A stretch of DNA of 64,000 nt from positions 248,001 to 312,000 of the forward strand of contig NW_025767537.1 in the NCBI RefSeq assembly GCF_003918875.1. Direction: 5' to 3'. Both the position numbers and the translations under genes were made by a program. This stretch comes from Haliotis rubra (Eukaryota). Position 1 is the stretch's first letter, and every line of letters starts with the position of its first letter. The notes under the pieces were generated by a model that was not told the DNA's origin, did no database searches, and saw only the letters and a list, made by a program, of their open reading frames with translations. Shown piece after piece: positions 12,081 through 64,000 of the stretch.

Positions 12081-13052
12081 TGATGTGTTTGGGTATGCAA
12101 TGTTGAAATGAAGCGCTTAATGGCCTACGTAGTCCTAAAAAATTCAATTGTATCACTTCCTTATTGCCTCTATGTCGTCAATTGCATGCGTGGCGACTAT
12201 TATCATTTTTTATCAGTAGTTGAACGATTTTCTTTCCTTACTACTTTAATTAATTGTTCAGATCATTCAATTTCACTCGGTCTTGCAATACTGCAGTAAG
12301 TAAAACCATTGAAGCATAGATTAATGTAAGTAATGAAGCTTAATGCTTCTGGCCAACTCATCAACAAAAATAACATAGCTGAATAATTAGGCACTTTGTC
12401 TTTTTCTTACCATTTCTAAGGGGTGCGTGGACATTCTTTGGTGATTGAAGAGATACTTCGAAATTCATCCAGGCTAACTGATAGTTCCTGGACGTTGGAA
12501 TTAAATTGCTCATTTTGTTTATCTGCTATTAAAATTTAGTGTGTTTAACAATAGAGAAGTTGGCGTAAATAAAAGGGTCGGTATATAATTAATGTTTTAG
12601 CACGTCCAGAAGAAGTCCCTTTTCTGACGCCCACTTGTGTACGGAGTATTGTTTACATGATGCATTGCACAAAACAGATGCATCACTAGTTTCAAAGTAC
12701 TTAAGTAAATCACATCATATGATTGAAACCGGCAAATGGCAGAACGTACTGAGAGAAGAAGATTATTAAAACTATTTAACTATAATTTAGTTGGTGACGA
12801 ATTCCATTATCTTTTTAAATGTACATAACTTAATTCTTTCAGAAAATCATTCATCCTACAAAAATATCACAATTGGGCCAATTTATCAAATCTAAACAAG
12901 GTCATGTCGCCTGTCAATTTTAAACTTAGCAAATGCTTATCACTATTTTTCTCTCACTTGTATAAATGTTACGCATCATCATAACTTATCATCTTGACAC
13001 ATGTTTATGTTTTTGTACATTTGTAAATATTGTATATTCATTGCTCTTGTAC

Positions 13053-13091
13053 TATTGTCGATGTGACGTTAAATTTTAACTCACTCACTCA
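13053..13091 (+). mobile_element. Extremely 5'-truncated retroposon tail with (CACT)n
   Basis: tattgtcgatgtgacgttaaa...ctcactcactca flanked by 9-bp TSD ctcttgtac. Confidence 0.8.
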
Positions 13092-13165
13092 CTCTTGTAC
13101 CACCGATAGTGGTTTTATGAAGAATGAAGAAGTTGAAACATTTGATAAAGTGATACAAAACTCAT

Positions 13166-13448: not shown

Positions 13449-13854
13449 TTGGTGTTGACATATGGTCCTGTGCATAGAGCTCAGGTCACAATCAGTTGAA
13501 GTTAAGCAACGTTGGGCGCGGAGAGTCCTTAGCTGGGTGACCGTGTGTGACAGCTTACCTCCTGAGAGTTTCTAGGACTCCAGTCCTGCCCCACAGCGAA
13601 GCACACATATGATACATGTTGTTTCACCTTTGGCAAGTGAGTTTGTGAAAAAAATGCCTCTGTTCACCAAGCAGAAAAATGGGTACCTGGTGAAATAAGT
13701 CGTGAGACTATTAACATTCTTTCCCTGAACAGGCAGCGTGGGTTATCCGGGCTAATAATAATCAGATTAACCAATTTGTAGCGCTTTCAGAATGCACTAG
13801 TGCCTGGAGTCTAGCGCTGTACAAATAAACTGTATTATTATTATATTCATTATC
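13449..13854 (+). mobile_element. 5S rRNA-derived SINE (SINE3-like) with L2-type tail
   Basis: 13498-13543 GAAGTTAAGCAACGTTGGGCGCGGAGAGTCCTTAGCTGGGTGACCG resembles the 5S internal promoter region; central AAATGGGTACC domain; stem-loop plus (ATT)n tail; TSD agcaaaa(a)tgacgcttcc. Confidence 0.85.
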
Positions 13855-16800
13855 AGCAAAATGACGCTTCCATATCATGTTATGTAACACAAAATAACGG
13901 ACACACTTACCCTGTAATTGAATTAGCAATATTCCCATTACTGAAAATGAGTCTGCTTTGTATTATTGTAAAGCAGATGTGTTTCACAAGAAATAGAGCA
14001 CGTTGTCCAGTGTCAGTGATGGTCTAGTGCGATATCCAAGCAATAAAGAAACAAATGCTGTGTTCTTTTGGCACTATAGTACTGCACAATCGACGTGCGC
14101 CAATTGAGAGCTCCATGGTGTAAGAAACTCACAATAAATCAAAATTCCCAAATAATCAGAAAAATACGCCTGAGCAAAAATATCAAAACGTTGGGGAAGA
14201 CACCAGTATTGATTTGACCATGTCATCATTTCAGCGAGCTATTGTAAGCCAGCGTTCCCCTCAAGGGACCTATGAACACAGCCAGTTTCTGCTGGATTGC
14301 AATAATGTTTCCAGATCCAGCGATACAGTAATCTCATATCCAACATATTTCCTTACGGTTTTCAGATCAAAGTATGCCAAAGATGATGTAGAGTTTTAGT
14401 CAAGGGAGGTCACTCATAATATTGCTCGCATTTTCACTCCCGTTCATTGTGATAACACAACATTAAGTACGTACAAGTTCCTTGCATCAGTGTTGTAGAA
14501 TTACGTAATTGGATTGAAAGGTATTCTACTTCTTTTTTATCATACTTCTTCAACATTTCCACATAGTACAAAAAGAGTTTCGGGCAACGCTTTCGAACGT
14601 TGAAAAATGTTCCTACTTACAACGGTAAGATTTATGTCAACTCTCCTCCATTGACGTCAGGCATTGGCCAGATGATAATATTCGCGAGGTCGGTAAGGAG
14701 GTTGTCTAAAGTATACTCATGGTAAATATTTTGGACACATTTTCAACTCCTATGCATGCAGTAGAACCGAATCTTGACTGCTCTAGTTTATGCCCCCAGT
14801 GACTGTTTCTTGTCATGAAATGCACATACATTCAGCTTTTCCCATCACCTTTAATCTTACACGTTTTATTCTTTCCAATACGCGTTGACGAATTTTCATC
14901 GCTGTCAACATGCTCAGATCTATAGATGCTGCAGATGTTGTTTGCACATGTTTATGTTTAAAATCGGACATAGCAAAGTGATCTTTCAATAATTACACTG
15001 GATGTGTGTCCGCGTTCACAAATCTTATTGTGTATTTTTCATGTCATAACACTGTAAAATGCGTGGTGTAGTACAACATGATCTTTCCCCAAAAATGTAC
15101 TCAGTTCATTTAGTACCAGATGCACACACACGTGTTCTTAAGTGTGGAGTATTAATCGTTGATATTTATGACATTTTTGGACTATTTTCTACCGTCTAAA
15201 TGAGTTTCCACTCATTGTAAATTGGTGGTCACGAAGACCTGATATGTTGGATTCACTTTGTGAAGTCGTATCGCCTAATCACCATGTGAGCCGTGTCCTT
15301 GTTTAGAAATACCTTTTAATATAAGTAATATCGCATGGTGTGGTCGAATGCAGAAAGTTATACTAAAAATAAGTGGAAACGAATTCTTGGACATTGAGTG
15401 CCAAATTAGCTTTTAGTGATTTTAAGGTTGGTGAAGTGTATAATTACATCGAGGAGCGGGCATGTTTCAAAAGAACTAATCAGTGAATTGCTTCTCGGAA
15501 TGCGGAAATTGAATCAACGTGTCGGGAAATTAACACTTCTTCAAGATTACTTTATTCCAATGCCGCCATTGTAACACTTTAAGTAACGGTATTTTTTCCT
15601 GCGGAAACTCTCCAATGAAACTAAATTAGATTGTTCCCGGAGATCTGAAGGAGCTGGCTGGAAGAAGAACGATTCAGATGATGCACCCAACAGAGAAAGT
15701 CCTGGAATATATGCATTAGTGATAGGTAATGCCGTAATGTTTCTTGCATTATCAGTAATCAGCGTGGGCAAATTAGCGTAGTTTCACGTCAGTTTTGACA
15801 ACATTGTCGCACCAGCGATTGCAAACAGAGCCTGGATGTTCGAATTGATAATCATTCGTTTTAGTTATTTACTATACATTTTGACGACTGCCGTGTTCAG
15901 GGAATACATGACAACACGTGTTGACAGTTGCATCTGTACAGTTGCATCTGTAAGCATAGACGTGACCATCACCACAGGTATGTCATCATCAAAGTGGATA
16001 CTCTCACACATCGGTAGGCCATCCAGCTGTTTTCACAAACAGGGGCTCGGTGATCTCTTAGTTATGCGTTGGCAGAATTTCTGCGACTTGTGCTCCGTTA
16101 TTGTGAAACTCTCATGTACGACTTTGAAAACCCTCCGAGCTACATACAATGTATTTGTATAATAAAGATGTGCATTTTTGCACAATTCAGGTGCATACTG
16201 TTGTGTAACTCAGATGAACATTCGTGTGAAACTAGAGTGTATGAACAGAAAGTCTCAGAGTGAATCAAACTGTTTGATCGCTAGGGTGTTTCGCTAGAAG
16301 GCCCGGTTCCACTAATACGGATGAAATCTATCGACTTGTTATGATGTTCATTTGTGAGTTGCCCTCCAAATTCACCACTTTAATATCTTAATTTCAAACT
16401 ATATCCAACTAATATTTATGTCTAGTCTTGTCAGTACCCTCTCACCTAAAAGCAGCTATATCCGTTGTGTTCAATCATATGATTTGATTCATATCAGTAT
16501 ACTGTAGATGTATCAATGAGTGATCGATGAATGGTTGTGTGTTTGAAGTCTGCTGTTAAACAGAGTGACAACTTAATGTGTGAGAAATGTTTAGCTTAAA
16601 ATGATGATGTTTTTGGACGTGTGCTTGTTTGATAAATCAATCGAGTGGTATACTAAAATGACGTGATTATTAAGGGATATCTGCGACTCGAACCCGATTA
16701 GCGGATCCTATATGCACATCGATCATCAAAACCGGAGGGCTAAGGGGGTTGCTATTATCATTGCTTTTCTTTTTATCTACCTGTTGTTCTTTGTTTGTTT

Positions 16801-17517
16801 TACAATCGTCATTGATGTCACGACAATGTTTCAAGCCTTCAAGTAAACGAGCAATCTCTATTTCAAAACATCTTTTGGTTCATCAGATATTTTTCGTTTT
16901 TAGTTCTACTAGAATGTCAAATTGACCTAATGTCCGAGAACTTCAACCCTCACGGGTTAAAAAAATATGAATACACATTTCCTGTAATGTTTATTCGAAA
17001 GTTTCTTAAACGTATTGTAATCCAACTTTTTAATCAAATCACAAAAGACATCAGCATCATGACTGTACTAGTAGCTCCACGGCATGTTGAGATGAAAATG
17101 GATTTTGCTCTTGATCTAAACCTTGTGCCTCCGGTTTATTACCGTGTCATGTTTTTGTAATTTCCTTATGTCAAATGTCAGGCGTGGACGCCAGTGCGGG
17201 GTAAACGGGAAAATCTCACGAATTCCTCAATAATTAACGACACGACTGGAATCCTGGCCTTGACGTAAGCTTGCCCGTAAAGAACCAAACTGTTTGATCT
17301 CGCGGGTGGGCATTGTGTGATGGCCTGTATCCATTAATACTGATGAAATCTATCAAATTCGTTTGGTGGAGTGCCCTCCAAATTCACCACGTTAATATCT
17401 TAACCCTTCTCTGTATCAAATCAACATTTATATCTAGTCCTTTTTAGTACCATCTCAGCATGAATAACCTATTTCTTCAATCATGTGATTTGATATTTTG
17501 GGCGTAGGTGTATTTGT

Positions 17518-17777
17518 GAGTGTGTGAGTTAAAATAGATTTTAAGTCACATCGGCAATATTTGAGCCATATCGTGACTAAAAACAAGTTATGATTTCATA
17601 ATATATAAAGATAAATAAAAAAAAACTGTCAACGAAGGACAGTAACATAACTAGGGTATCATAGATTTCCATTTAAAACTGGTAATGAACTTTAAAATAT
17701 TTTAACAATATATGACAATACAATATAAAAACAGGCTATAAATTTCCAACAGTTGAAGGTAGATCACCATACTAAGG
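17518..17777 (-). mobile_element. LINE 3' UTR fragment with (CACT)n-type tail
   Basis: 12-bp TSD aggtgtatttgt; reverse complement of 33139-33421. Confidence 0.85.
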
Positions 17778-17854
17778 AGGTGTATTTGTATCAGTTTTAT
17801 AAGTAGGTTGTAGGATTGATCAGTACAGTGTCAATGAATAGGGATGTGTTTAAT

Positions 17855-18075
17855 GAATGGGGCTGTCATTGCCTTCTCAAAGACAGCCCCAGTTCTTTGG
17901 AATTCTATTCCCCTCAAACTCCGCTGCATCGGCAACGTCTCAACCGTTCGAACTGACTTGAAAACCTTCCTTTTCTCTGGAGTCTCTCTACCCTAGATGT
18001 GTTTGAGCGCCGCTGAACAGCTGTAAGCTGGAAAGCAGGCGCGTCATAAATGCATTATTATCATTATTATTATTA
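17855..18075 (+). mobile_element. L2/CR1-clade LINE 3' end
   Basis: AFSKTAPVLWNSIPLKLRCIGNVSTVRTDLKTFLF (typical L2 ORF2 end), GCGCC..GGCGC stem-loop, (ATT)n tail. Confidence 0.85.
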
Positions 18076-20784
18076 AGTCTGTTATTGGCAGTTGTAACAT
18101 CGAGTGACAACCTAATTTGTGAGGAAGGCGTTGCTTAAAAATACGCTGTTCATGGACGTTTACCAATTTGATGAAGCGTTCCAGCAGTGAGGACTGAAAG
18201 CTGAACGAATATTACCAAGAGATGTCTGGGACTCGATACCACGAGAAGCCGATGCTAAGCACATCGATTCTCTAGGCCTACACCACCCATACCACGAGGG
18301 CTAAGGGATTGCCATCAATAACACACAGCGTCTGTTGAATGAGTGTTATTGCGATTGCACATATCGTTTCATATTGTGAAAAGATGAGCGTATCCTACCC
18401 ACACTCAAGGCGCTCTTCATAAACACATAAGATGTTTTCAAAACTAATTTTCTTGAAGACATTATCTTTATTCTTAGCTTCCATTTGACAAATCTAAAAA
18501 CACGTTAAGGTCATTTACAGAATGCCATAGATTCCAGATAGATTGAAGTTGAGAGGCAGACATACTGAAATATCCTCAAGGGTATTTTAGAGGCTGATTT
18601 ATAAGGCTGATATACGATTTACGATCTTCGTCTTTTGGATCAAAAGTAAGGAAACATTTCTCGCATGGCCGACATCACACACTTCCGTCGACATTCTAAC
18701 TTCTGTGTACAGGGTATGAAATATTTAATGTGTAATAACTCATTCAAAGCAAGCTTCCTAATTTTTATATCCAATTAGAGTAAATTCGCCTGTAACTCTA
18801 TATGGTTCTACTTTTAGAGTAAAGGCACCACTGCAGAATCTTATTTGTAATTGTCTTTTACCTAGTTGTAAATAGCCATAAATATTGTATAGTGGCTCTT
18901 CGCTACAAATGATGTTGGATGCAAAATAAAAGTATCATTAACTATGGGTTGCTTCGCAAATGCCACACAATCCCACTAATAGTAGCAGTAAGACATTCTA
19001 GTGACAACAGGCATCACAGATACTTGTTCTTTTATTATTTTTTCACCGACATCGAACGTGAGCAAGTGTCAATTTCATGTCCATTCAGTACTATTTATTT
19101 TAGTCATTATCCTTTTATATATATTTGTCCAATCCTTTCCAATTCCGAAAGTTGTTGTGCCATGTCATAAATGCAAGAGAATGCAATGTCGAGAGCATGC
19201 ACACGTCGTTTTATTTGTCTTATTTTTTTTAAAAAAAATGAAAATATATCGAGAATAACCCTTTGAATTGTCCACACAAATTTACACCTTTTACTTGACA
19301 TCATTCTCATAAAAGGCTCCGTGTTGGTGATCTTCCAAGTACATATATTTCTGAAGCGCTTTTGCTGAACTGGGAGAGAAAACATCTACCTAAATACACC
19401 ATACAAATTATTGGCTGAAACGCGCTTCTATGTAGAGCAATGTTCTAATTCTTACAGATCAGTACAACCTGAACAATGGGGTCAGCAGTGATTTGTTCTT
19501 ATCAGGTTTGTATAGTAAATGGAAATAAAGGATGAGAAGTCAGACGATTTGAGAGATACAATCATGTTTGTAAGACCTGGTGATTAGGTTCTCAATGCAC
19601 AAACAGGTTCAAAATTATATAAATCTCCCACTGTCTTGGTGCGGGCAAATACTGACTGAATTTGTCCACCATTGTTCTTGGGAAAATTAGATTAATTTTA
19701 ATTACAACCCACATCTTATGCCTCGCGCTTAGCATACCGCCATAGTTCGAACAAAATACGTTGCCAAATCTATTACACACAATATTGGACGCGAATGGCC
19801 TTGCTAGCAGAATGTCTTCAGACAGATATTTATCAATGAGTTAAACTCTCCTAACCCGTGACGAGCTACAGCTTGGATCGCCTTGGTTACAGATTTATTT
19901 TCTGTGCTTGTTCGACTGCAATTGTCAGTATCAGTTCGGTGTACCACAAGGGAATTCTCTTTCGCTAGTTTCATTACCAGTGAATACCACGACAGGAGAT
20001 CCATTGCGACCAGATGATGTTAGTCTTTCTTATGCCATGTGTATGTTGTGTGTAAATGGTTTAGTTTCATAACATTAACACTCATGCGAGGAATTGGGAT
20101 TGATTTTGTAATCTGGTTTCGCGTGGCATAGTTTGTCCTTTGGTGCTGGAATGGAGACATTACTCCTGTATATGCCATCTCTGTGTCAGCTCGTCCACGT
20201 CGCAATGGCTTTGATTCTGTAATCCCCTTAATCCTTTGAGAGATCGTCAGTATTAGCATTACATAATTAATATGGAATCAAACATTCTGCGATACCATAA
20301 ACATGATTACCTTATTGTACTTTTGAGATAATGTGGATCACGAGCTATACCCGATTTCTTGATTATTTATTGCACTATGTGTTACATAACGACGACCTTT
20401 ATGCTTCGGTAATAATGATGAAAAATATTCCTGGAATCACACTTTCAAACTATTTTCAACATTATTTACTAACAACCATGGATGCGTTAACATAAGATTG
20501 ATTAACTAAAGAATGAATGAATCAGGTTTTCAATTTTGTTTTTTTGAAAATGTTTCAATCGGGCTTATATACTAGTAGTGTTTTATCCAAACCCACTATA
20601 GAAACCACAAGAAACATAATACAGCTTCATGCATATCCAATGCTACACCCATACTCATTTGTAAAGTAAACCTTGAACAGTGAATACATCTTGAATGAGT
20701 AACGAAGCAAGCATTTGAAGTGCAAGTTTACACGAAACCGTTTTGTCTTGCACTGTTTCAGGATAAAAAAGTGTTTGTCAAGTA

Positions 20785-21550
20785 CAGTACAACCAGAAAT
20801 TATTGAGAATTTAAAGATTGTAATGTTTTTAATTTTATTTCACTCATTACTCACGTATTAATGTGAATATTAGCAGAACATAACTCCAGATTCAACGACA
20901 GGTGAACAGTTAGTATTTTGTCAAGTCACCATGGGCAGCGATGCAGGCTTCAATGCGGCGGGGCATACTACTGATCAAAGAAGTTAGAAAGTCGTGGTCC
21001 ATGCTGTCCCAATATCGGACCACCTCTTCTTTCATTTCAGCAATATTTGTCAGATTTTTCTTATTGACACTTTCCTTCATAAGTCCCCAAACATTTTCTA
21101 TTGGATTTAGGTCAGGGCTATAGCTTGGCCAATCTAATAATGTCATACTTTGGGTCCGAAACCAGGCCTGTGAATGCTTTGAACGATGTTTTGGGTCGTT
21201 GTCCTGCTGGAAAATGAAACAATTTCCATGGAACACGTGAGCAGATGGAAGTAAATGTCCCTCGAGAATATCTGTGTACCGCTCACTGTTCATATTCCCT
21301 TCAAATACACAGAGGGGCGTTGCCCCTAACACAGCTATGCCACCCCACATGTTAAATTTCGGACTGTACTTTGGGCGCTGATACAGAGGTTTTTAGTTTG
21401 TTTGGTCCAGAAATTCAGTGTATTAGGAAACAGCCACATAGAACTTTCATCTGAGAAAATCACATTGTCCCAGTTAAAATTTATACGCTGTAAGCACCAG
21501 TTCAACCTTCGCTCCTTTTGTTCAGGTTTCATGATCGGTGATGGAATTCT
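20785..21550 (-). mobile_element. 5'-truncated Tc1 (DD34E) transposon
   Basis: One TIR-like end TA|CAGTACAACCAGAAATTATTGAGAAT at 20785; transposase fragments. Confidence 0.9.
20910..21532 (-). pseudogene. Tc1-like transposase catalytic domain, frameshifted, N-terminus missing
   Basis: VIFSDES, MWGGI, FQQDNDPKH, WPSYSPDLNPIENVW; 34 residues between D and E; frameshift near 21400. Confidence 0.95.
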
Positions 21551-21639
21551 TTAATTGATTTTGCAGTAAACGACATCTTATATATTCATAATAACATGTA
21601 TTCTATTAGCCATGTCATCTGTATCTATAGACCACCACA

Positions 21640-21760
21640 TGTATTGCGTCGTCATAGCATTGTGACGTCACGGCCAGAGTTAACAGTTACTGTTCAGTTT
21701 TACCTGATGATAGGGCCAGAACAAGCCATGAAACGTTGTACTCGAGAATAAAAAGAAGAT
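21640..21760 (+). mobile_element. Degenerate Penelope-like pseudo-LTR fragment with minimal hammerhead-like motif
   Basis: tac-CTGATGA-(ggc..gcc)-GAAACGTT-gta followed by AATAAA. Confidence 0.5.
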
Positions 21761-21891
21761 GTAACCCAGAAAAAATCTCTATGTTCATCAAATATCATCT
21801 TCTAAAATGCCAATCAAGCATCTAATAGAAAAGTTGTAGTAAATACCGTTGGCATGTAAATGGTTAATGCTTTAGCACGTCCCTTGATGGA

Positions 21892-21974
21892 CTCTCACTC
21901 ACTCACTCACTCACTCACTCACTCACTCACCCACTCACCCACTCACCCACTCATCCACCCAACCACTCACTCAT
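21892..21974. repeat. (CACT)n/(CACC)n microsatellite
   Basis: Seen directly. Confidence 0.95.
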
Positions 21975-22012
21975 CGTGTACAGCGATCATGGTAATAAGT
22001 TACACACGTATG

Positions 22013-22167
22013 GGGGCAGTGGGGTAGCCTAGTGTTCAATGCGTTCACTCGTCACGTTGAAGACCCGGGCTTCGATTCCCCACATGAGTATATTGTGAGA
22101 AGCCCATTTCTGGTGTCCCCCGCTGTGATATTGCTGGAATATTGCTAACTAAACTCACTCACTCACT
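22013..22167 (+). mobile_element. tRNA-derived SINE (same family as 10722-10891)
   Basis: A/B boxes, (CACT)n tail, TSD cacgtatg; empty site at ~30820 in U3. Confidence 0.92.
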
Positions 22168-25100
22168 TCGCACGTATGGTTACTGGAAGCCTTGCAGTAA
22201 GGGGATACACCATTAATTTCAACATCATAAGCAAAACACATCTTTATGGTTAAATCAATATGATACAAACCTCATTCAATTAAATTAATCCCATTCTAAT
22301 CACATTCACTATTACTTACTAACGACAGTATCACGTTTGTCCACTCAGCAACATGACACGTTCTTATCATGTTATGTAACACAAAATAAGTAAGAGGAGA
22401 GGCAGACCATGCAATTCAGTTAGGAATATCAATATTACTGAAAACAACTCTCTAAACCAGATATGTTTTACAAGGAATCAAGCACGTTGCTTAATGTCAC
22501 GGAATCCCAGCAATGTGGGAACATAATGTTATTCTATTTTGGTAACAAAGCGATGAATAATCGGCGTGCGCCAGTTGAGGGCTCCATCATGTAAGAAACT
22601 CACAATAAAGCAAATTCCCAAATAAACAGAAAACCACAACAGAGCATGACAAATACCAATGCTTGGGGAAGACACCAGTATTGATTTGAGTGTGTCATCA
22701 TTTCAGCGAGCTATTGTAAGCCAGCCTTTACCTCAAGGGACCTATGAACACAGCCAGTTTCTACTGGATTGCAATAACGTTTCCGGATCCAGCGATACAG
22801 AATCTCATATCCAACTTATTTCCTTACGGATTTCAGATCAAAGTGTGCCAAAGATGATGTAGAGCTTTAGTCAAGAGAGGTCACTCACAATACTACGTGA
22901 ATTTTTCACTCTCGTTCATTGTGATAACACATATCATTAAGTATGTACAAGTTCCATTCGTCAAAGTTCTAGAATAATGTTATTGTATCCTTAAGGTGTT
23001 TTACTTCTTTTGTATAATATTTCTTAAAGCGTTGCATGGTTTAAAAAAAACCGCGGTACAGAAATATGTTTGGTCCAATGCTTTGGAACTTTGAGAAATG
23101 TTCTGACAAGAAACGGAAAGATTTACGTCAACTATGCTCCATTTAACTATGCATCATTTAGTAAGATGGTTATATGCAAGAGGTCGGTAAGAAAGTGGTT
23201 TCAAGTATACTCATGGTCATTATTATTAGGTCGGAGAATTATTGCAAGATAAAATGTCGCATTTTCAACTCCTGTCAAAGCAGTTCAGTTGCATCTTGAC
23301 TGCTACAGTTTATACAAACATTGACTTTACTTGTTATGAAATGCATAATTATCCATTTATCTTTTTTCCACCTCCTTTATGTTACACTTGTTATTGTTTC
23401 TAATAATTGGTGACGAATGTGCGTCATAATCAACACACTCAGATGTGCAGATACTATAGATATCGTTTGCACATGTTCATGTTTGATACCTTAAATAGCA
23501 AAGTGATCCTCGAGTAAATTACACTGGGTGTATGTCCGCGTTCACAGTCCCATTGGTTCTTTTCAAGTCATTACGCTGTCGAAAATCGGGGATGCAGGAC
23601 AACATGGTCTTTCTCTGCACATCTACTGGGTTCATTATCAAATGCCAGTACCAGATGCACATATGTGTGTTTATGTTTGAAATATCAATAACTGCGATTG
23701 ATGACTTCTTTGGACTCTTTTCTCCTGTCTGAATGTGGTTCCACTCATCAACAGTTACTAATAGGACCTCATACGTTTGATACAGTTTGTGAGGTCGGTT
23801 TGTCTAATCACCATGTGAGCCGTGTCTTATTTTAGAAATTGTATATAATATAATTCTTATCACATGATGCTGTCGAATGCAGAAGATCATACTAAAAATA
23901 AGTGCAAAAACATTCTCTCACCTTTAGTGCCAAATTAGTTTTTGGTGAATTTACAAGGTTGGTGAAGTGTATAATTAGGTTGAACAGCGGGCCTGTTTCC
24001 AAAGAACTAATCAGTGAATTGCTTCTCGGAATTCGGAAATTGAATCAACGTGTCGGGAAATCAACACTTCTTCAAGATTACTTTATTCCAAGGCCGCCAT
24101 TGTAACACTTTAAGTGATGGTATTTTTTCCTGTGGTGACTCTCAAAAGAAGCTACATTAGATTGTTTCAGGAGACCTGAAGCAGCCGACTGTTAGAAGGA
24201 CGATTTAGTGCATATACTCAACAGAGAAAGTCATGGAATAAATGCATTAGTGATAGGCAATGCCTTGATGTTTCCCGCATGGATGGACACATTAACTTGC
24301 ATTGACGTGAATTGTAACACCACTGTCACAACTGAGGTGGCACACAGAGCCCGGATGTTCGGCTTTATAATCGTATGTATTATTGATCAGACTACTTAAC
24401 TTTACTTTTGACAAAATATGTTGAGGGCAATATCATTAGGTCATTCACACGTTCCAGTTTGCATCTGTAAGCATCTAACTGACCATCACGCAGGTATGTC
24501 ATCATGAAAGTGGACACCCACACGCATCCGGTCGGCCATCCAGACGTTTTCACAAACAGAAGCTCGGTGATCTCCCAGTTATGCGTTGGCAGAATTTCTG
24601 CGACTTGTCTTCCGCTTAATGTGGAACACCCATGTAAGCATTTGAAAACACTCAAAACTGTAATATTGTATATTCAGATGTGTAATTTTGCAAGACGCAG
24701 ATGCACATTGTGGTATAACTCAGATGTACATTCCTGCGAGCGTATGCACTGATTCTAGTTTCTTCATATATACCTGTCGTTCTGTGCCTTAAGTGTTGAC
24801 CATTATTGTCTATCTACATTGATGTCACAACAATGTTTCAAGTCGTAATCTCCGATATCAATCTCAAGCACAAAACGTCTTTTCGTTCATAAAATGTTTC
24901 GTTGTTGTTGTTTCTTTGGCTTTTTGTGTGTTTGTTTGTTTTCATATTCAGTCCGCCTCAAATGCCAATGTAAACTTCAAGGCGAACAGTTACATATGAG
25001 TTAAATAGTAAAAATTACACTTTTCACGTATTCTTCTGATTCGAAGTTTTTCAACGTCTTAGAATCGAATTGTTTAAACAAACCACAAAACGCCTCCCTC

Positions 25101-38194: not shown

Positions 38195-38227
<33 letters not shown>
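38195..38227. repeat. (GT)n microsatellite
   Basis: Seen directly. Confidence 0.95.
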
Positions 38228-38231
<4 letters not shown>

Positions 38232-45694: not shown

Positions 45695-45888
45695 TTAGTG
45701 TAACGACATGTGAATACAACGATGATCATGTCACAGGCATCGACAGAAAATCTTTGAAGATAAATCAGGTTATTCCTCAATTAATTTCGTTGACAACAGC
45801 AGAAACAGTCAAATAAATACCCTGATGGTCGTACAGTCAAGGTGAATTACGATCATCAGGGTCAATATTGATTGTTAACGTTTAGCTA

Positions 45889-51449: not shown

Positions 51450-51508
51450 GGCCACCATATAGGTGGAATATTGTTGAGTGCGGCGTAAAATTAAACTCAC
51501 TTGCTCGG
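51450..51508 (+). mobile_element. 5'-truncated SINE/LINE tail
   Basis: GGAATATTGTTGAGTGCGGCGTAAAA tail with 10-bp TSD tgcaccttac; absent in U4. Confidence 0.85.
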
Positions 51509-52017
51509 TGCACCTTACAGAAAGCTCAAAACGATATTGCAAACCCGGGTCATTGTTTCACCTGTGGGATACTTATTCTATTGTGGCTGAGCAACTTGAC
51601 ACATTTTCAATTGATTTCATTTTTTTAAAAAAGTGGCGTCACAATTTAATTAAACACCTTCTCTTGCTCCAACCCCTGCTCATAACTCAGCGAGATGCCA
51701 AACGCACGTCAGTACTGTGTGTGGTTAATGTGGACGTTGGGCATTTATTCTTTGAGAATAGCAACTTTGTGTTGGATAAATTTGAAAAGCAATCGATGTC
51801 TTCTTGTCAGCTTTTAAGACGCTACGGATGAACACGATACACAATGTGTGACCTTTCAACTGTTGAAGGAATTACTTTCAAACGAGTGACACTTGGTCTC
51901 ATACGTTTCTATTGGTGATGAAAGTGGAGCTGTTCAATGGCAATGTTTTTTCTATGTGTATGATATGTTTAGCAATGGTAGCTATGTATTTAAAACCAGT
52001 GTGTTCCAAGTGGCATT

Positions 52018-52331
52018 TTCCGGAGTGCGGAAGGTCGCGGGTTCGATGCCCGCCCGCGTCATACCAAAAGACGTTAAAATATGGTACTTGTTGGTCCCTG
52101 CCTGGCGCTCGGCATTAATGGGTACAACAAGGACTGGTAGGCTCAGAGTCAGTATAATGTGTCTGAGTGGGGTATTCATGCTTACTGCGGCATGGTATCT
52201 CAGTGGGCTAGCACTATAAAACCAGCCTCAGTCTGGGCTAATACAAGCAGCCGCATATACACATACACACGCAATGACGTCGTATGAGCGAAATATTTTC
52301 AAGCACGACGTTAAACCCAATTTCACCTCAC
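52018..52331 (+). mobile_element. tRNA-derived SINE, slightly 5'-truncated
   Basis: Matches 2691-3020; 14-bp TSD ttccaagtggcatt; empty site in U4 (~44820). Confidence 0.92.
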
Positions 52332-52361
52332 TTCCAAGTGGCATTGTGAAACATGTTTCTT

Positions 52362-52750
52362 GTGGTGATGTGTGGTCTTGTGCATAGAGCCCAGGTCACA
52401 AAGCAACTGAAGTTAAGCAACGCTGGTCACGGAGAGTCTTTGGATGAGTGACCGTTTTGGTCAGCTTGACTCCTGATAATTTCTATGACTTCTATATGGC
52501 CCCACAACGAATCACCTATGTGGTCACACCTTAGGCAAGTGAGTTTGTTCAAAATTGCCTCTGTTCACCAAGCTGAATATTGGTACCCGGTGGGATAAGT
52601 CAAATGACTATATTAACCTTCTAACCACTCACGGACTCACGGACAGTTTGGGCTATCCGGGATAATAACGTCCAGCATGTTGTATGCGCTTAGATCATGT
52701 CTTGCGGCGTGGAGTTCATGTCTGTATAAGTGGCCTTGTTATTATAACCC
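52362..52750 (+). mobile_element. 5S-derived SINE
   Basis: GAAGTTAAGCAAC...AGTCTTTGGATGAGTGACCG; aligns to the 13449 and 44844 copies. Confidence 0.8.
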
Positions 52751-53223
52751 ATTACCTAGATTTTAACTATTTTCAAGATGGTTTACCCAAACCGTATCAG
52801 TACAGTAGTAATTTAATCAGTATAAGCATTAGGAATACATTCCGTCCCTCAAAGAAAAATGCAATGGGTTTAGCTTTACCAAACATGTCCAACTGGTGTA
52901 GAAGCATGATTAGTTTATGTCAAATTCGTCCAATGCGTTTTATCTAAGGGATAACTATCTCAGTTAAAGAAGCAGGTTGATTTCACGCCACTTCCACTCC
53001 ACTTATGCCAGTAATATCGCGACAGAAATGGGGCACACAATGTACCCATGGCGGGAATCGAACTCCTGGCTAAGCGTGACGAGGAACGCTGTAATAATTA
53101 AGTTGCCGCACCACCCCTTAGTGTAACGAAATGTAGATACAACGATGATCAAGTCACAGACATCGACTGAAAATTTGAGATAATAAATCAGGTTATTTGT
53201 CAATAAATTTCATTGAAATAACT

Positions 53224-53422
53224 CATTCTTGTCATAAGAGGCAACTAACGGAATCGGGTAGTCAGGCTAGCTGACTTGGTTGACACATATCATCGTATCC
53301 CGAAAGCGTAGATCGATGCTCCTGCTCTGGATCTCTGGACCGTCTCGTCCAGACTCGATTATTTACAAACAGCCGCCATTGGAATATTGCTGAGTGTGGC
53401 GTTAGTCGACAACCAACCAACT
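53224..53422 (+). mobile_element. V-SINE-like fragment
   Basis: cttgtcataagaggcaactaacgg...ggaatattgctgagtgtggcgtt with (AACC)n tail. Confidence 0.8.
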
Positions 53423-55049
53423 AATGTCGTTGATAACAGCACAACAATCAAATCAGTACATTCAAGGTAAATGACGATCACCTGTTAAAGTCATTCCATA
53501 CTTAAACTAGCACCGATCTACACTATTACGAAACAAGAGAACACGATCCCGTTAATCGCCTGTTATAATAAGCATGGGTTGCTGATTACCATTTCTAACG
53601 CGGAACTTCAGGGGGCTAAACAGTCATAAGGCTCAACATTTATAAGAATGTTTCTTCATTCCACATCCAGCCAAATGGTAAAGTTCATTTCGTTCAAGGC
53701 AATCTTTCAGGTCGTTCATGTTACATCTTGATCCGATGTTCCGAAACACACTAATGACTTTACTTGAGGTCCTTGGGGATATCAACCGTCTTTGATACGT
53801 TTAATAATGGTGTATATCTGCCTTGAGCGTGTCCTCCTACACATACTGAACTAATGTGTAATCTTTGACAGCTTTGAAAGCAGTTCACGCAAATGTAGTG
53901 TCAAGAAATTGGCTAACAAATCTCTATGGATTTGAATCGAAATGGCAAGCAGATAATGTTCGTTTACTTTACCAGTCCTGCTTGATTGACAGTAATTGTA
54001 TTGCAAAACTATGTGCCATGGTACCAATACATTATAGGCATTAGAGTAGCCTATATTAAATTTGCTTAAAGCCTTGGCTCATCAATCTAAATTTCCGGGT
54101 TCAATCCCCACATGGGTAAAAAGTGTAATGCAGAGTGGAGTTAAGGTGACTTTGACTGTTTACTGTGCTCTCTCTATTTTTTGTACACATGACAGATGAT
54201 ACATGACAGAACGGACATACTAAACTAATATGTGGAGACCATTTCTAATGTCCGTCACTGTGATGGTGCTGGAATGCTACTAAGACTCTCTTTCCCCACT
54301 CTATTACAAAGTACAGAACATTTATAATGACCACAGAATAGTTTCTTACTTTAAATTGAAATCCAATGCGATAATCGCTTGTAATCGCGGCCACAGATAG
54401 ATAGATAAATGAGCACCATGCCACCGACTCTGACACAATGACACACAATAAGTCTTGTCACACTTATCTGGCAAACTGGCACTGAAAACTAAGAACCTAC
54501 GGTTACCCTCTAGGACCACGGCATGTAGTTCACACATACTGACAGACATATGACAATACAACGTCATCAATTTGCACTACTACATTAATCCGTTTTAACG
54601 CGAGCCAAACCAGATCCGGTTGATGAAATCGGTGATACTTCTCCCCAATAAATCATGTCTCGACAAAACAAGGCAATGAAATAGTCCAAGCGTCAATGCA
54701 TTTCTCTCGCGATCCAAACACTGGCAACCCAAAACGCGCCAATTTTTCCACAAATTGGAACAGGAATAGAAAACCCTCTTTCCCGAGATGCGCAATACAA
54801 CTTAGTCACATGATCTGTCTCACTTCTCCATCCACTTGGCTTTTTGTCAAGATGCTGCAAACTGATATCCCTTTCAATGGACATATGCGCAACCCCATGA
54901 GACACTTACAAGACAGTGTTGTTTTATGTACCGAAACTGGTTCCAGATCTTATAAAGAGGCCGCCCACATGTACGTAGGATGTCTAGCTAGTCTCAATGG
55001 AGATAAACATCTCCTGGATGCGTGTCCGTGTTATAAACATTTAATCAAT

Positions 55050-58000
55050 GTGCATCAGATGTGTTTCAGTAAGAAATGAGAATGTCATGATCATCATTCA
55101 AAAACACAAAGTAGTGCTTTAATGAAGTGAGTAAATCACAACCACCAATCCCAGTATCTCACCATGGCTTGTTATAACAATATGTTAACGTGTTCTTTGT
55201 CAGTGACGTGGAATGTCGAAGTTAGATTGAAAGGTATTCCACTTCTATATTCTATTCCCTAAAACTTTATAATTGGAATATGTTCCGACATAAAACAACT
55301 AAATTCGTATTGGTCACTCAATAATATGACAGTCTGAGAGATTGTTTAGAAGGTCGTGAATGCATACTCAGCGTCCTTATTTTGGCAGCACGGTCATATC
55401 CTATTTACAACTTCTAATATAAGAGTACATCTGGAAAGCTCCTTTTTCTGCCCACATTGACTGTCACTTGCCGTGAATTACATGTGCACTCAGCTTTTTA
55501 GATTAACCCTTTTCTTGCAAATGTCATGGTTTCTGAAAGTCGTTACCTTTCCAGCTTTATGTGGACTGCCATCAATGTGGCATAGACACCACAATCTGTT
55601 CCTCAACTTTTAATCACATTGCCTACATTATCGGAGCTGTCTCGACTAGCATATTTTCATGTTTGAAAATACCAACAAATTTCTTCCGAAATGGCATTGG
55701 GTATATCACCACGCTCAAAGATTTCATTATTTGTTTTCAAGTCATAACAGAAGTCTATCTAGAAGAACGGTGGCGCAATGCAAAGTGACCATTTTACAAC
55801 AATGGACAAGATATACATGAAGGTGTCTGTGTTTTTTTTATATATGAATCGTTACGAAGAATGTCATTTTCTGGGAAATACTCATCTCTTTCTCTCATCT
55901 GGCTTTTCATGACCACGACGTCAGTTTGTAAGATCATTTCGACAATGAATCATGTCCCTGTTATGAAAAGGTTGTATCATATGATTATGTCGAATGCAGA
56001 AGAGGGTCATACTACAATTGAGAATGAATGGAAATGAATTCTGGAACATACAGCGCCAAATTAACTTTTGGTAAATTCCAAGGTTAGTGAAGTGTATAAT
56101 CATGTAGAGCAGCGGGCCTGTTTCAAACGAACTAATCAGTGAATTGCTTCTCTAAATTCCGAAATTGAATCAACGTGTCGGAAAATTAACACTTCTTCAA
56201 GATTACTTTATTCAAGAGCCGCCATTGTCACACTTTAAGTAATGGTATTTTTTACTGTGTTTTCTCTTCAATGAAGCTATATTAGATTGTTTCAGGAGAT
56301 CTAAAGCAGCCGATTGTTAGAAGAACGATTTAGTTGATATACTCAACTGAGAAAGTTCTGGAGTAAATGCATTATGGACACACAATGCATGATGCTTCCT
56401 GCATGGTCGGTAATCAACATGAGCACATTACCTTGATTGATGTCATTTTGACAACACTGTCACAGCTGAGGTGGCTACAGCGCCAAGTGTTCGACTGGAT
56501 CATTAAACTACTTGATTCTGCTGACGATGTATTTATCCTGCACATAAACGACATGCGTTTCGGGCATATATCCATCAGTCTTGAACATGTTTGTTTATCG
56601 TTAACACACTTCTAGATGGCATGAATACATCTCTATTGGGCATAAACACAAAACCAGTAGGTATTAACACACATTAAGTAGTTATTCTCACACATCAATA
56701 GCCCTTCGAACAGTTCCAAGTTGTAATCGTGCATCCGACTTAACACGTTTTGGAGGTATTCAAGCACATCAAATACAACTGCAAGCGTTTTAGTGTGCAT
56801 TCACACTCACGAACTAGATCTTCACGTATGACATAGGTAGTGAACTGGATCCAGCATGCCTTCACACGTTCTCGTACTCATTCACACACATCAAAGTGAC
56901 CATCGCTCATAACAAGTAGGTTGTTTCACAAATAATTACACACATCCATGACATCCATTTATTGTCAACCAGTGGAATCGCAGTGTTGTTTTGGTTATGC
57001 TTTCGCAGAATTTGGCCACGGTGTACATCGTTGTAAAATTAAGATTTACATTGTTGTCCGATGTATATTATTATAAAAAACTAAGAGGCATGTTGTTTTA
57101 AAGGTCAGATGCACATTAATTAAATAGTCGGTAATACTATTTAGACACTCATTTTGGTATTTTTTTTCCATTTGAAAATTACAACATATTTCAAGTCAAC
57201 GCTTTGAGTATACCACAAACCGCCTCTCTCAGCTTCTGTTCTGGTAGCTCCTCGGTACCTTGAGCTGAAACTGGGCTTAAAGTAACGTGGCAGTTTAATA
57301 CACTTTTCATGTATTCTTCTCATTCGAAAAGATTTTCAACATACTAGAATGTACATTTTTTAGACAAACCGTAAATGGATTTTCACAGGAACATGTGTGT
57401 AGTAGCACCTCCGCGGCAGGAGTAGGAAATGGATTTCGCTCCATCAGTATGGGGTAAACGAGGAAATCTCACGAATTCCTTAATAATTAACGACACCACT
57501 GGAATCCTGGTCTTGACTTAAGGCTGCCCGCAAAAAGCCAAACTGTTTGATCTCGTGGGTGTTAAGTCAAATGGACAAATTGTCGTAGTATTCATATGCA
57601 TTTAACAAGTGCGCTCAAAATTCACCATGTTAAGATCTTACTTTGCCTCCATATGCAACCAATATTTATGCCTGGTCTTTGTAAAGTACCCAAGTGTTTC
57701 TTAAATAATGTGATTTAATTCGTTGTGGGTAGGTGTATTAGCACAATATCAGTATCCTGTAGCACTGACGGTGGTGCTTGAATGAATGATGACGGGTTTG
57801 GCATTGTTCCATGGAGAGAAAGCTTAATATGGACGTCATCGACGTTTGCCATTTTGGTAAAAACCTCAAACCGTCTACCTACAAATCTACGACAATAATC
57901 AAGGAAAGAGCTGGGACTTCAAACGCGTGATGGAAGGATCCAATCCTCGTGGGTTCTCGGTGCCTGAGATTCTCGCACCAAGAGGGCTATAGGAGATAGT

Positions 58001-61000
58001 ACTTCTTTTATATCGCAAAAAGGTGAGCCTATCTTGACCAATACACATGGTATAAAATGTATAAATCAACATTTATTAAACAACACACAGATTAACCATA
58101 TTGGTAGCTTATAATACAGTTTGTGCTGTGGTCAAGGAGCTGTTGTTAATTCAGAAATACTTTGATGTATTATATAATGCCGTTTTGCGATGTGTATCGA
58201 AGAACTGATAAAAACAAACATGTTGTGCTTGAATAACCTTACGGGGATTTCCAAGCAGCATACGACTTGTGTGAAGATTAGGATTCAGACTTTTGGGATT
58301 AAAAGTAAAGTAACATTTCTCTCATGGATAACATCACACACTTCCCTCTGTATGGAAACGTCTGTGTACAGGGTACGAAATATCAAATCTGTAATTAATC
58401 ATTCAAAGCAAGCTAGGAAATTTGGAGACCCAGTTAGAGTAAATTCGCTGGTAACTTCATTTAGACCTACTTTTAGAGTAAGGGCACCACTGTCTTACCC
58501 TATGTGTAATTGTCTGCTACATAATTGTAAAAGGCATAAATATCTCATGATGGTTCTTCGCTACAAATGATGTTGGCTGCAAATGTGTCATTAACTGTTG
58601 GATGCTTATACCACAACATTCCAGTTGATATAGGACGAACGATCTTCGGACAGATATTTACGAGCACTTGACGAGCTACAGTTGAGATCTCTTTGGCTAC
58701 ATTTCTCTGCGCTTGTTCGACTGCAGTTGTCAGCATCAGTTCGGGGTAACACAAGGGAATTCTGTTTTACCAATGTTATTCTTAGTGAATAGTACATCTG
58801 GTGAATCTTATTCCAAATTACAACTATCACAAATCACCGTATTACCTAACGTTCTCATATTCACTTCCTTGGACATAAATTACCTATTCTGCAACTTACA
58901 GAAAGCTGAATGATTGTAACTCTCCGGGTCATTGTTTACCCTGTGGGACACTTATTCTGTCGTGAATCCCTGCCCATAAGTTTGTCAGGTACCACACATA
59001 CGTCAGTATTGGTTAAAGTAGATCTGGGGGGTTTACTCAGAGAAATCTGAAAAACAGCCAATGTCATTTTGACAACGTTTAACGCGCTACAGATGAACAC
59101 GACAGACAGTGTTTGATCTTTCACTGGTGGAAGGAATTACTTTTAAGCGATGAATACTTTGTTCATACGTATCTCCTGTCGATGAAAGGGTAATTGTGGA
59201 GAGGTTCAATGTTTTATAGTTAGTCATTATTTTATTGGCCAATTGGAGTATAGCATTATAAATGTACATACAATGAATCTCAAACTACAATAGGGATGAA
59301 TTTAGTAAATACATTTGCGTATCCGTCTCTCAGAGAATGATGAAATGAGTAAAGCTTCATCAACTGGCTACGACGCAGTTAAAAGAATCAGGGCGACGGG
59401 GAACGATTTAATCAATGGGCTATCGCACCCACCCTTAGTGTAATTACATGTTAATACAATACCTTACACATGATTATGTGAAAGGCATCGACCGAAAATG
59501 TCCAATGATCATACATCAAGTTATTTCTCAATTAATTTCGTTCGGAACAGCACAAACAGTCAAATAAGTATACTCAAGGTAAATCACCAGGGTCAATTTT
59601 CAACGTTTAGTTAACCCATACTTAAACTACACTACTGGTGTACGATCCGTTTAATCGTGTGTTATAACAAGCCGAAGACCATTTCTAACGCAGAACTTTA
59701 GGAGTTTTGTATAGTCATAAGGATAAATATTTAATAAGAATGTGTCTTCAAAGCAGATATTGATATCAGCCACAGGCTAATCCACGTCCGCGTTGGCGTT
59801 ATTAACTTCATATACAACAGACATCGTCGACGACGATTAAAAACATTATTATATAGAGTCATTCCTCAACCAAGCAAATGGTAAAGTTCATTTCGTTCAA
59901 GGCAATTCCCATTTCTTTCATGTTATGTCTAGATCTGATGATCCGATGCTCGTTAATAACTTTACTTGAGTTCCTTGGAGATATCGACCGTCTTTGATAT
60001 GTGTAATAATGGTGTAGATATGCCTTGAGTGTGTCCTCCTATACATACTGACTAATGTGTAATCTCAGACAGCTTTGAAAGCAGTTCACGCAAATGTAGT
60101 GTCAAGAAATTGGCTAACATATCTGTATGGATTTGAATCGAAATGGCAAGCGAATCACGGTCATTGACTTCGGCAGTCTTCCTTGATTTACATAATCGTA
60201 ATGTACATTAAACTAAATGCGTCAGAGCAGCCTAGAAAGTTTGTGTATAAAGCCTTCACTCACCAGTCCCAGGTACCAGTTTCGACATGGGTACAAAGCG
60301 TAAAGCACTGTAGAGTTAAGGTAACCTCCACTATTTACTGTGCTCTGTTTATTGCTCTCTTGGTCGATGGTCTCTAAAAACATACATTCTAAACTATGAC
60401 AATATGTGCAGCCATTTTCGATGTCTTTTGTTGTGATAGTGCTGGAATACAACTAAACCTCCCTTCACCCATACTTACAAGTGAAGAACATGTATCATGA
60501 CCACGGTTTGGTTATTGTCTCGTTGGCATTTCTGTGTCCTTATCACAACACCTTGTCTTGGCATCCTACCAGGGCAGTTGTTGTAGGCGTAAGGAAGTAT
60601 ACCACTCCAACAATCGCTGTGACTTATATATTAAGTAAAGCAGGACCTTTGTTCCCGTTGATAGTGAAAATAAACGGATTGTTTGATGGTGTTCAGTAGA
60701 TATATGGTTTATTGCATACAGCTGGGTAAAGATTACTTTTCTGAATAAAAGTATGCTCCCTTTTGTATGTAAAACATCAACGCCAGAGATCACAGCCACC
60801 CTCGATCATCCGCCTGTACAGATTCCATTTGGCGTCAAAGCAAATTAAAATGGCTGTGAAAATAACATGAATGGATCACTGAGAATCATGATACACCGGA
60901 AGCACCCCTAAATCTAACAATGAGCATAAAATGTAGGTGTTTGTTCCTGAATGCTTGTTGTTGTCATATATCTAGACGATGTGTAAACCTTCCACACTGG

Positions 61001-61745
61001 ACCAGGAAAATCAGTTAGCGATAGAATGAGCAGCCTGGTCACACTTAACTGGCAAACTGTCACAGAAAAGTAAGAACCTTCGGTAACCCTCTGGGAACAC
61101 AGCTTGTACTGCAGATCTACTGACAATAGTGACATATCACAATACAGCGTCACAACATTGCTGCACGCACTACGACGTTAATCTGTTTCAACGTATGCCC
61201 AACCAGATCCGGTTGATGAAGTCAGTGATACTTCTGTCCAATAAATCACGCCTCGGCAAAGTTAGGCAATGAAATAGTCAAAACGTCAATACATTTCTCT
61301 CGCGACCCAAACATTGGCAACCCAAACTATACCAATTCCTAGCTCAAATTGGAGCAGGAATATAAAACTCTCTTTCCCGAGAAGCGCAATACATCTTAGT
61401 CACGTGACCTGTCTCACTTTTCCATTTCTCTTGGCTGTTTATCAAGATGCTGCAAACTGATATTCCGTTCAATGGACGTATGCGCAATCCCAGGAGACTT
61501 CTACGAGACAGTGCTGTACAGTACTGTTTTATGCATTGAAACTGGTTTCAGACCTTTTAAAGAACTGATACCGGTTTCAATGGACGTATGCTCAATCCCA
61601 TGACACACTTACGAGACAGTGTTGTTTTATGTACTGAAACGGGTTCCAGATCTTATAAAGAGGCCGCCCACATGTAGGTATGGGGTCTAGTCTCAAGGGA
61701 GGTAGACATCACCTGGGATGCATGGCCATTAACATTCAAAGTGCA
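55050..61745. repeat. Long tandem array unit U6 (subfamily B)
   Basis: Core at 56141; boundaries approximate. Confidence 0.9.
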
Positions 61746-64000
61746 TCAATCAGATGTGTTTCAGAAGGAATATTATTGTCAGTACTATTATTGTATGAAA
61801 TCCAAGTACTATAGGGACAAAAGACTGATCTGTACTTCCGGCAATATGGTCAACAAATAAAAAAAAATAAAAACAGACAAATAGGTAATTCATTAAAAGG
61901 CCATGGGTCCATGATACAAAAATAGGTTCCATTCATTGAAGTAATTATGTTTCTCTGTTGGACTTTATATAAATATAGACATGAGTTATAGGTATCCATG
62001 ATTTCCTGATGAAACACTTTCGATAAAATATGTTACCGTGAGGGACTTGATATATAATTCTTTAAGATACATATTTCAAATGATGAAGTAACGCTCACGT
62101 ACAATCAATATATGAAATTCATCTTCAACAAAAATCTCTCTTTCGATACACTATTTACATAGCCGTTCAATTATGTTCCAAAATCGACTGCTGGTTTAAA
62201 CCTACTTGGACATAGTCTCGGATGTACAGGGAAGGGAGTGTAAGATATACATGTAACATATATTTGAAATGCTTATAATAGAAGGACTCAGATGAACTGT
62301 TGACAGAAGTATCATGAGTGTTGAAGGTTGTCAAATAATCTTTGTTTAAAAAGGTGACTGAATATCTTCTTATTAACCACGTACATCCAATATATGAAGT
62401 TATGAAAAATGGGTTAGTCCACTGCTCAGCATTAATTACCTAAGAGGGCTGCAATAACTGGTTTACTGTTCTTCAAACAAAATTCAAAACAACTTTGGGT
62501 TCTCCTTGAGGCTAACGGCGTTTTTTTCTTTGTTCTTCAAAAATAATAACAAAACAAAAAACAAATATATCCGAGCATGAAAACTACCAAACCCACGAGG
62601 GAAGACACCAGTATTGACGTTTTCATTTTATTTGATGTTATTGTTTCAGGGAACTATTGCTAGCTGGCATTTCACTTAAGGGACCTATGATCAGGGCCAG
62701 TTTCTGCTGGATTGAAATTATATGATACACTGAACCCAAAATCCAAGGTATTCCTTATTCCTTACGGAATTCAGAATAAAGTAGTCAAAAACACAAAGAA
62801 GTGATTTAATCAACAGAGTCAATCACAATGCCACTCGCAGTTTCTTACCATCTCTTTGTGGTTGTAACTCAACATTAAGGACGTTAACGGTTTTTTTGTC
62901 AGTGACGTTGAGCGTCGCAGTTGGATTGAAAGGTATTCTGCTTTTATATTCAATTACATTCTGCTTCCTAAAACGTTATAATTGAACATGTTCTGACGTA
63001 AAACGACATAAGTCTTACTAACGGTGCATTCAATAATGTTATAGCCTGCAGAGGTTGCTTAGGAGGTGGCGCATGTATACTCAGCGTCATTATTCTAGCA
63101 TCACGTCGATATCAGATGATAGGTCGCATTTTGAACTTCTGAGAGTGCATCTGGAATGCTCCAGTTTATGCCCACATTGACTGTCCCGTGAATTACACGT
63201 CCAATTAGCTTTTTAAATATCACCCCTTTTCTTGCAAATTTTATAGTTTCTGAAAGTCGTTACTTTTCGTGCTTTATGTCATCAATGGGACATGGACATC
63301 AACAACCTGTTCCTCAACATCTAACCACATTGTCTGCATTCTCGGAGATGTCGATGCTTGTTAGCATATGTTCATGTTTAAAACATCAACATGATCATTC
63401 CGATATGACACCGAGTATATGCCCACTCTCAAAGATTCCATTCATTCTCATACCAGAAGTGTATGTAGAAGAACGGTGATACAATGCAACATGACCTTTC
63501 TACAGCAATGTACAAGATACACATCAAGATGTATGGGGTTTCTTTTAAATATGAAACGTTACGAAGTATTCTGGGAAGCGCTCATTTCTTTCTCCCATCT
63601 GAATGAGTTCACACTCATCGTAAGTTTCACGATTTGGGTTTTGATGACCACAAGTATGAATTCTAGAACATTTATCGTTAAATGAACCTTTCGTGAATTT
63701 CCAAGGTTATTGGAGTGTATAAATTGAAAAGAGCAGCGTGCCTGTTTCAAACGAACTAATCAGTGAATTGCTTCTCGGAATTCGGAAATTGAATTAACGT
63801 GTCGGGAAATTAACACTTGTTCAAGATTACTTTATTCCAAGGCCGCCATTGTAACACTTTAAGTGATGGTATTTTTACCTGTGGTACTTCTTCAATGAAG
63901 CTACATTAGATTGTTTCAGACGATCTAAAGCAGCCGACTTTTAGAAGAACGATTTACTTGATATACTCAACAGAGAAAGTCCTGGAATAAATGCATTACT
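61745..64000. repeat. Long tandem array unit U7 (partial, runs off the window)
   Basis: gggaagacacc block ~62598, core at 63765. Confidence 0.9.
61860..62520 (-). mobile_element. Degenerate LINE 3' fragment (RTE-X/CR1-type)
   Basis: IERLCK*CIEREIFVEDEFHILIV..RY C-terminal motif near 62090-62170; insertion absent from U4/U5. Confidence 0.7.

Follow-up and report, generated by a model that had tools for sequence, protein, structure and literature searches.

Tandem arrays of the size found at one locus of Haliotis rubra usually contain a gene, and the locus raises the question of what its units are and why parts of them have stayed alike. The window analysed here is a stretch of 64,000 nucleotides (G000:C2647:248,001–312,000). 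Self-comparison of the window showed collinear blocks, all on one strand, from approximately 12.5 kb to the window end. Such same-orientation blocks had been described in a sequence-only reading of this DNA, and the seven recurring anchors that it reported were all found where it placed them. Comparison with neighbouring DNA showed that the array runs on for approximately 7 kb beyond the window, to about window-equivalent 71,040 (G000:C2647:319,040), its last 7,040 nt being carried by the neighbouring piece L001. Since both array ends coincide with unit borders, the array consists of exactly seven complete head-to-tail units, with seven copies of island I1, seven copies of island I2 and a spacing of 7.2–8.6 kb (Table 1).

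Architecture and genomic setting of the array

The units formed two subfamilies, A (u1–u3) and B (u4–u7). Sister copies were alignable over 2.7–5.1 kb per pair and copies of different subfamilies over 1.1–1.8 kb, with an identity of 79–84% over aligned bases. In total, 76% of the array bases aligned to at least one other copy and 12% to at least five others. The GC content of the array was about 38%. The DNA between the islands had been called partly unalignable; much of it proved to be subfamily-specific and alignable between sister copies. Block B had a second, older copy 1.0–1.25 kb upstream in u1 and u2, and the first part of the A-type block was also present in subfamily B.

Table 1. Positions of the array, its units, slow blocks and inserted elements (window coordinates unless prefixed L001).
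Feature	Position	Strand	Remarks
Whole array in window	12520..64000	+	continues to about window-equivalent 71,040
Leading piece resembling spacer ends of u1/u2	12520-13850	+	self-comparison
Unit u1, subfamily A	13853..22344	+	borders approximate
Unit u2, subfamily A	22345..31149	+	
Unit u3, subfamily A	31150..38719	+	block B lost
Unit u4, subfamily B	38720..47789	+	
Unit u5, subfamily B	47790..55089	+	
Unit u6, subfamily B	55090..62549	+	
Unit u7 start, subfamily B	62550..64000	+	remainder in L001:1-7040
Island I1	15400..15720, 23928-24251, 32109-32429, 40272-40592, 48901-49224, 56055-56376, 63677-64000	.	slowest block common to all 7 copies
Island I2	18620..18975, 27178-27527, 33524-33893, 43779-44104, 50883-51232, 58292-58625, L001:2551-2904	.	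mean JC 0.24
Block B	17051..17494, 26340-26790, 42567-43056, 50063-50175, 57441-57768	.	in both subfamilies, partly deleted in several copies
Block D core	59859..60200; about 46692-47020, 53656-54000, L001:5147-5470	.	subfamily B only; pairwise difference 13%
Block E	61195..61510; about 47261-47665, 54600-54930, L001:6510-6930	.	subfamily B only; pairwise difference 14%
A-type slow block after I2	19780..20120; about 28675-29000, 35550-35900	.	subfamily A; 12-14% difference
Likely gene-conversion tract	44322..44829	.	93% identical to 51511-52019; one 200-nt window 99%
Tc1/mariner with terminal inverted repeats	40647..42180	+	directly behind I1 of u4; 94% identical to copy 144 kb away
Tc1/mariner fragment (DDE_3) in u1	20785..21549	-	95% identical to copy elsewhere on contig
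Palindromic MITE in u4	45887..46414	.	at least 39 other genome places at 93-97%

DNA searches of the assembly were performed with four queries chosen free of repeats (I1, a 2.4-kb piece with block B and I2, block D and the A-type block). No copy outside the array was found with these queries, and the matches (at least 7, 27, 5 and 14, respectively) all lay within it. When ten blocks were compared sensitively with 410 kb of the contig, one 47-base match beyond the array was obtained. In protein-level searches of the genome, 9 of 9, 9 of 11 and 11 of 16 matches were inside the array; the seven matches outside it (E 0.017–4.5) were repeats or low-complexity sequence and were rejected. Metagenome contigs and viral contigs lacked the one island pattern that was sought there as an exact string, phage genomes gave no match to the one unit compared with them, and no account of a comparable mollusc array was found in the literature searched. 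As stated earlier, the locus is not an ordinary gene cluster and not a satellite either, with both a coding signal and dispersed copies absent.

Single units carried Tc1/mariner elements, MITEs, SINE-like pieces and LINE fragments. The reported lack of transposon anatomy is therefore correct for the unit itself but not for individual units, which do carry inserted elements. Dispersed copies, terminal repeats and hallmark proteins, as expected of a transposon or virus, were not found for the units, with Pfam applied to parts of units. Because it is 94% identical to a distant copy, the Tc1/mariner element of u4 is younger than the array. Decayed reverse-transcriptase tail fragments were present in u3 (34855–35295) and u1 (17874–17975); they are alike to a frame in L175, and we take them to be LINE-like.

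A single 454-codon voltage-gated potassium channel (Kv) frame with BTB_2 and Ion_trans domains lies on the minus strand 1.0–2.4 kb before the window (L011:7608–8969). The array is located about 13.5 kb to the 5' side of this Shaker-type Kv gene, which has no homology to the units. A minisatellite with a 27-bp period occupies window positions 6726–9543; its approximately 104 copies have 88% matches and are strongly skewed in G and T, so that long but spurious open frames arise on either strand. Small tandem repeats (periods 144, about 40, 42 and 43) occur at 233–661, 3602–4472, 10057–10299 and 13163–13391. Elsewhere on the contig (G000:C2647:430,748–436,273; L156–L157), NTPase-like and ankyrin-like frames, named by eye, flank a Tc1 element that shares 94% identity with that of u4, and a 750-bp copy with an internal deletion comes next. 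At L003:6458–9618, a transposon-like gene is spread over three overlapping frames and ends in a Spin/Ssty match (E 1e-10).

Slow blocks and gene conversion

Pairwise identity of I1 was 81–89% (JC 0.12–0.22 across all 21 pairs, mean 0.17) with 0.7 indels per 100 nt, compared with a mean JC of 0.45 and 3.1 indels per 100 nt in the segment preceding it (7 copies). For I2, identity was about 75–87% (JC 0.14–0.30, mean 0.24) with 1.5 indels per 100 nt, and the segment preceding it had a mean JC of 0.59 and 4.4 indels per 100 nt (7 copies). The rate differences between island and preceding segment were significant (p 5e-35 for I1 and 1e-13 for I2), with spacer distances possibly inflated through poor alignment. 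The sequence-only reading had put the islands at 88–99% identity. The unevenness is real but smaller than this, and identity at the 91–99% level holds only for one u4/u5 tract. An identity profile no more variable than neutral expectation, which would have spoken against that reading, was not observed, as the rate differences exceed a uniform rate.

Shared dead repeat fragments, which are short (168 sites per pair), served as the neutral proxy. Among u4–u7, in pairs other than u4/u5, these fragments differed by 23.5% and the spacer by 24.7%, while the differences were 14.5% for I1, 17.9% for I2, 13.2% for D and 13.9% for E. The slow blocks evolve at 55–75% of the local neutral rate, and four separate blocks (I1, I2, D and E) were slow in all u4–u7 pairs. 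A common depth of 13–15% was shared by I1, D, E and the A-type block, which could also reflect simultaneous joint release from constraint. The best-kept 60–80 bases of I1 (93% mean identity) contain the word TTC-N3-GAA (15493–15501 and the other copies), intact in six of seven copies. This word has the form of a STAT-type site, but words of this kind are frequent by chance.

The branch separating the subfamilies was 0.17 in the spacer versus 0.02 in I1 and 0.01 in I2; the island trees were star-like, and the scaled spacer tree was rejected for the islands (p 4e-7 and 8e-20). An excess of agreement at polymorphic sites marked out tracts between u4 and u5, between u2 and u7 in I1 and between u3 and u7 in I2, each reached in 0 of 300 permutations, uncorrected for the number of pairs. 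Elsewhere, the u4/u5 pair was mostly 76–85% identical. The star-like island trees together with the pair-specific tracts indicate gene conversion, and the runs of agreement point to it because uniform selection does not create such runs. Both the dependence of tree shape on the segment and the pair-specific tracts are characteristic of concerted evolution. Gene conversion, which the earlier reading had overlooked, explains some of the island pattern with no need to invoke a function. Indels and insertions locally ending gene conversion between tandem paralogues are described in a part of PMC3449122, and that indel-free blocks of the array have remained alike fits such a local ending.

The distribution of change across sites differed among the blocks. 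In I1, the best fit was 12% invariant sites, and 40% or more was rejected. With its near-uniform rate across sites, I1 therefore appears younger rather than motif-constrained, and conversion alone could suffice. The best fit for I2 was 23% invariant sites. D and E together (4 sequences) had 50% invariant sites with the remainder at the spacer rate, 7.5 lnL above a model with zero invariant sites. This pattern looks like site-specific constraint, although patchy conversion can mimic invariant sites. Conversion and selection probably both acted on the islands.

Tests for proteins, RNAs and relics

Every frame of the 14 I1 and I2 copies contained 4–18 stops, several of them shared among copies, in agreement with the hand translations reported before; one plus-strand frame of I1 was comparatively open. 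Island substitutions showed no triplet pattern and no synonymous excess, and island indels were mostly 1–2 bases long. Over 6.8 kb of aligned blocks, codon-phase scoring returned z-values of −0.9 and 0.0, with moderate power (approximately 3 for a 1.8-kb TLR decayed by 20%, 1.7 for the Kv control and −0.4 for a transposon control). None of ten block-strand exon scans clearly exceeded shuffles, with one nominal exception in a gap-ridden end (TLR control, 27 vs 7). Splice-site pairs common to the copies enclosed no open exon except an 11-codon piece in block C. A 151-nt exon candidate on the I1 minus strand, with a shared acceptor–donor pair, was rejected: it was open in one of seven copies, and the best-conserved part of I1 would be intronic.

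The most open I1 plus-strand frame had 0 matches among 1.84 billion proteins with HMMER, and two word-based protein searches likewise returned 0 matches. For stop-read-through frames from parts of the array, Pfam gave no family in sets of 3, 9 and 6 frames and in none of 10 members; another 18 such frames gave four sub-threshold matches. Nothing was found in PHROGs and PDB with parts of the array. Strand composition of the array was flat in a weak test, and no polyA or TATA motif common to the copies was found. The array contained neither a shared open frame nor exons with synonymous bias, as would be expected of a protein-coding cluster.

Searches of the whole window for Rfam families and tRNAs recovered neither, and the single Rfam match (54.4–64 kb, E 3.5) was attributed to chance. 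Consensus folding of I1 yielded weak structures, and the covariation term was unfavourable for either strand. RNA-structure z-scores for windows in six blocks centred on zero, with 1 of about 100 windows at −2.4. Neither an Rfam or tRNA match nor a covarying fold, the marks of a structured-RNA array, was obtained.

LRR-, TIR- and GPCR-like words were visible by eye in the units, the TLR-like ones on both strands. Genome-wide, at least 150 matches to the TIR domain were obtained, many of which belong to clusters of Toll-like genes with a single frame. A long LRR gene at G000:C2093:960316–964060 had its best LRR matches every 1186–1188 bases, in a block repeated four times. With 30 + 40 TIR-bearing, 30 LRR, 30 GPCR and 9 neighbouring ORFs as tblastn queries, nothing significant was found in unit DNA. 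Frameshift-aware TM-TIR scores at seven candidate sites were −2 to 9 (ranks 141–552 of 576), while 12 held-out TLRs scored 17–89 at 25% decay, −2 to 46 at 35% and −2 to 20 at 45%. A TLR relic is rejected up to about 35% decay, and only a very old relic (over about 35–45%) escapes. The top hit of a TM-TIR profile search of 4260 tiles was an I2 copy (E 0.14). LRR-chain scores compared with 300 shuffles in 18 tests gave 5/300 for I1 plus, 4/300 for block C plus and 12/300 for I1 minus. Two of the 18 tests, at p about 0.015, are marginal; the single-motif LRR scan was not above the flanks, and the profile–profile comparison with TLR/LRR (hhalign) was at null. Tests for a GPCR (rhodopsin-like, 7TM) or GRL101 relic were negative, the power check having been made for TLR only, and a relic of the neighbouring Kv, STAND/ankyrin or transposon ORFs was rejected. 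The two origins suggested previously fared accordingly: an endogenised virus was unsupported in viral, metagenome, phage, PHROGs and protein searches made with one island or one unit, and an intronless gene is unproven, with TLR and GPCR tests negative and LRR marginal.

Competing explanations and known systems

We tentatively favour a single-locus tandem family of non-coding 7–9 kb units whose islands may have been kept alike by conversion together with weak selection. An early duplication would have produced units A and B, after which the spacers would have diverged and acquired repeats, with re-amplification within each subfamily; the seven copies were likely built by unequal crossing-over. 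Indels and insertions would have halted conversion in the spacers, while intact blocks would have gone on converting. Judged from sequence comparison, the slow blocks of 250–450 bases likely are, or once were, working parts, either exons belonging to a long RNA or regulatory modules. It is conceivable, if doubtful, that the locus is a living family of seven tandem non-coding genes, with blocks under nucleotide-level selection and swapped between copies. Just as doubtfully, each unit, with its five or six blocks, might then produce a long RNA that lacks structure, or else form a bank of regulatory modules upstream of the Shaker-type gene.

An unlikely origin is a cluster of long-dead protein genes, perhaps LRR- or Toll-like, in which ex-coding blocks were converted after death and hence share stops. 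In its shared core with subfamily-specific spacer, its 7–9 kb copy spacing and its LRR-like words seen by eye, the array is like the single-exon TLR clusters of the same genome. The I1 plus-strand frame low in stops, the marginal LRR-chain scores of I1 and block C, the I2 copy topping the TM-TIR tile search and the common depth of I1, D, E and the A-type block, as with joint release, are in line with this origin. However, TIR, transmembrane and LRR similarity did not rise clearly above null in the array, the tblastn queries found nothing significant in the units, its TM-TIR scores lie below those of TLRs at 25% decay, the I1 plus-strand frame has no protein match, and synonymous bias is absent. 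Functionless intergenic DNA amplified in tandem, with islands that are merely the parts spared large indels and still converting, seems to us quite unlikely. Conversion is evident, I1 changes at a near-uniform rate across sites, the units contain old shared repeat fragments as any intergenic DNA does, and the ending of conversion by indels and insertions has a described precedent (in part of PMC3449122). This would nevertheless require an array-wide sweep to make all 21 I1 pairs uniformly close, and it leaves the origin and retention of seven copies unexplained; it is also at odds with four blocks being slow in every u4–u7 pair and with the invariant-site excess in D, E and I2.

By analogy, a large non-coding locus in a single orientation might be a piRNA-producing locus amplified by ectopic recombination, which we regard as improbable. 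Rodent clusters arising through duplication are cited in a passage of PMC6461890, and mollusc piRNA clusters (sections of PMC11067994 and PMC6128900) are likewise non-coding and of similar unit size, the units falling within the 2.7–17 kb range given in PMC11067994. The word "tandem" is absent from the main text of both mollusc papers. The 14 clusters reported in Haliotis rufescens are, in that part of PMC11067994, richer in transposons than the genome, whereas the array is not repeat-enriched (6% repeats versus 5–19% in four flanks, with a small library), and no island target was found elsewhere in the assembly. An amplified relic of an endogenous virus or large transposon is the least credible origin and very improbable. 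It would suit unique, high-complexity DNA without a host homologue, but dispersed copies and coding phase are absent, and searches with one island or one unit gave no viral, metagenome, phage, PHROGs or protein-library match.

Macrosatellite units are near-identical, while those of the array share 79–84% identity over aligned bases, with 1.1–5.1 kb alignable per pair. The vertebrate macrosatellites DXZ4, NBL2, RS447, RNU2 and D4Z4, of which DXZ4 and NBL2 are listed without an encoded product in a table of PMC5687341, are like the array in occupying a single locus with head-to-tail units of several kb. In contrast to their GC content of 48–71%, that of the array is about 38%, and the array differs further in having only seven units, which are about 80% identical, fall into two subfamilies and contain slow blocks. 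Converting clusters of tandem paralogues, as far as described in part of PMC3449122, share with it neighbouring copies, mosaic trees, high-identity tracts and divergence at indels and mobile elements; the examples there are protein genes, whereas the converting blocks of the array have no coding signal. The array works like a paralogue cluster in concerted evolution, and its layout is macrosatellite-like but without near-identical units.

The locus combines the anatomy of a gene cluster and slowly evolving blocks, yet no gene was detectable. If the blocks are functional, the array would represent an amplified non-coding family that is invisible to protein and Rfam annotation. If they are functionless, it would be a clean case of gene conversion imitating constraint, and a caution against calling conserved non-coding elements from paralogues alone.
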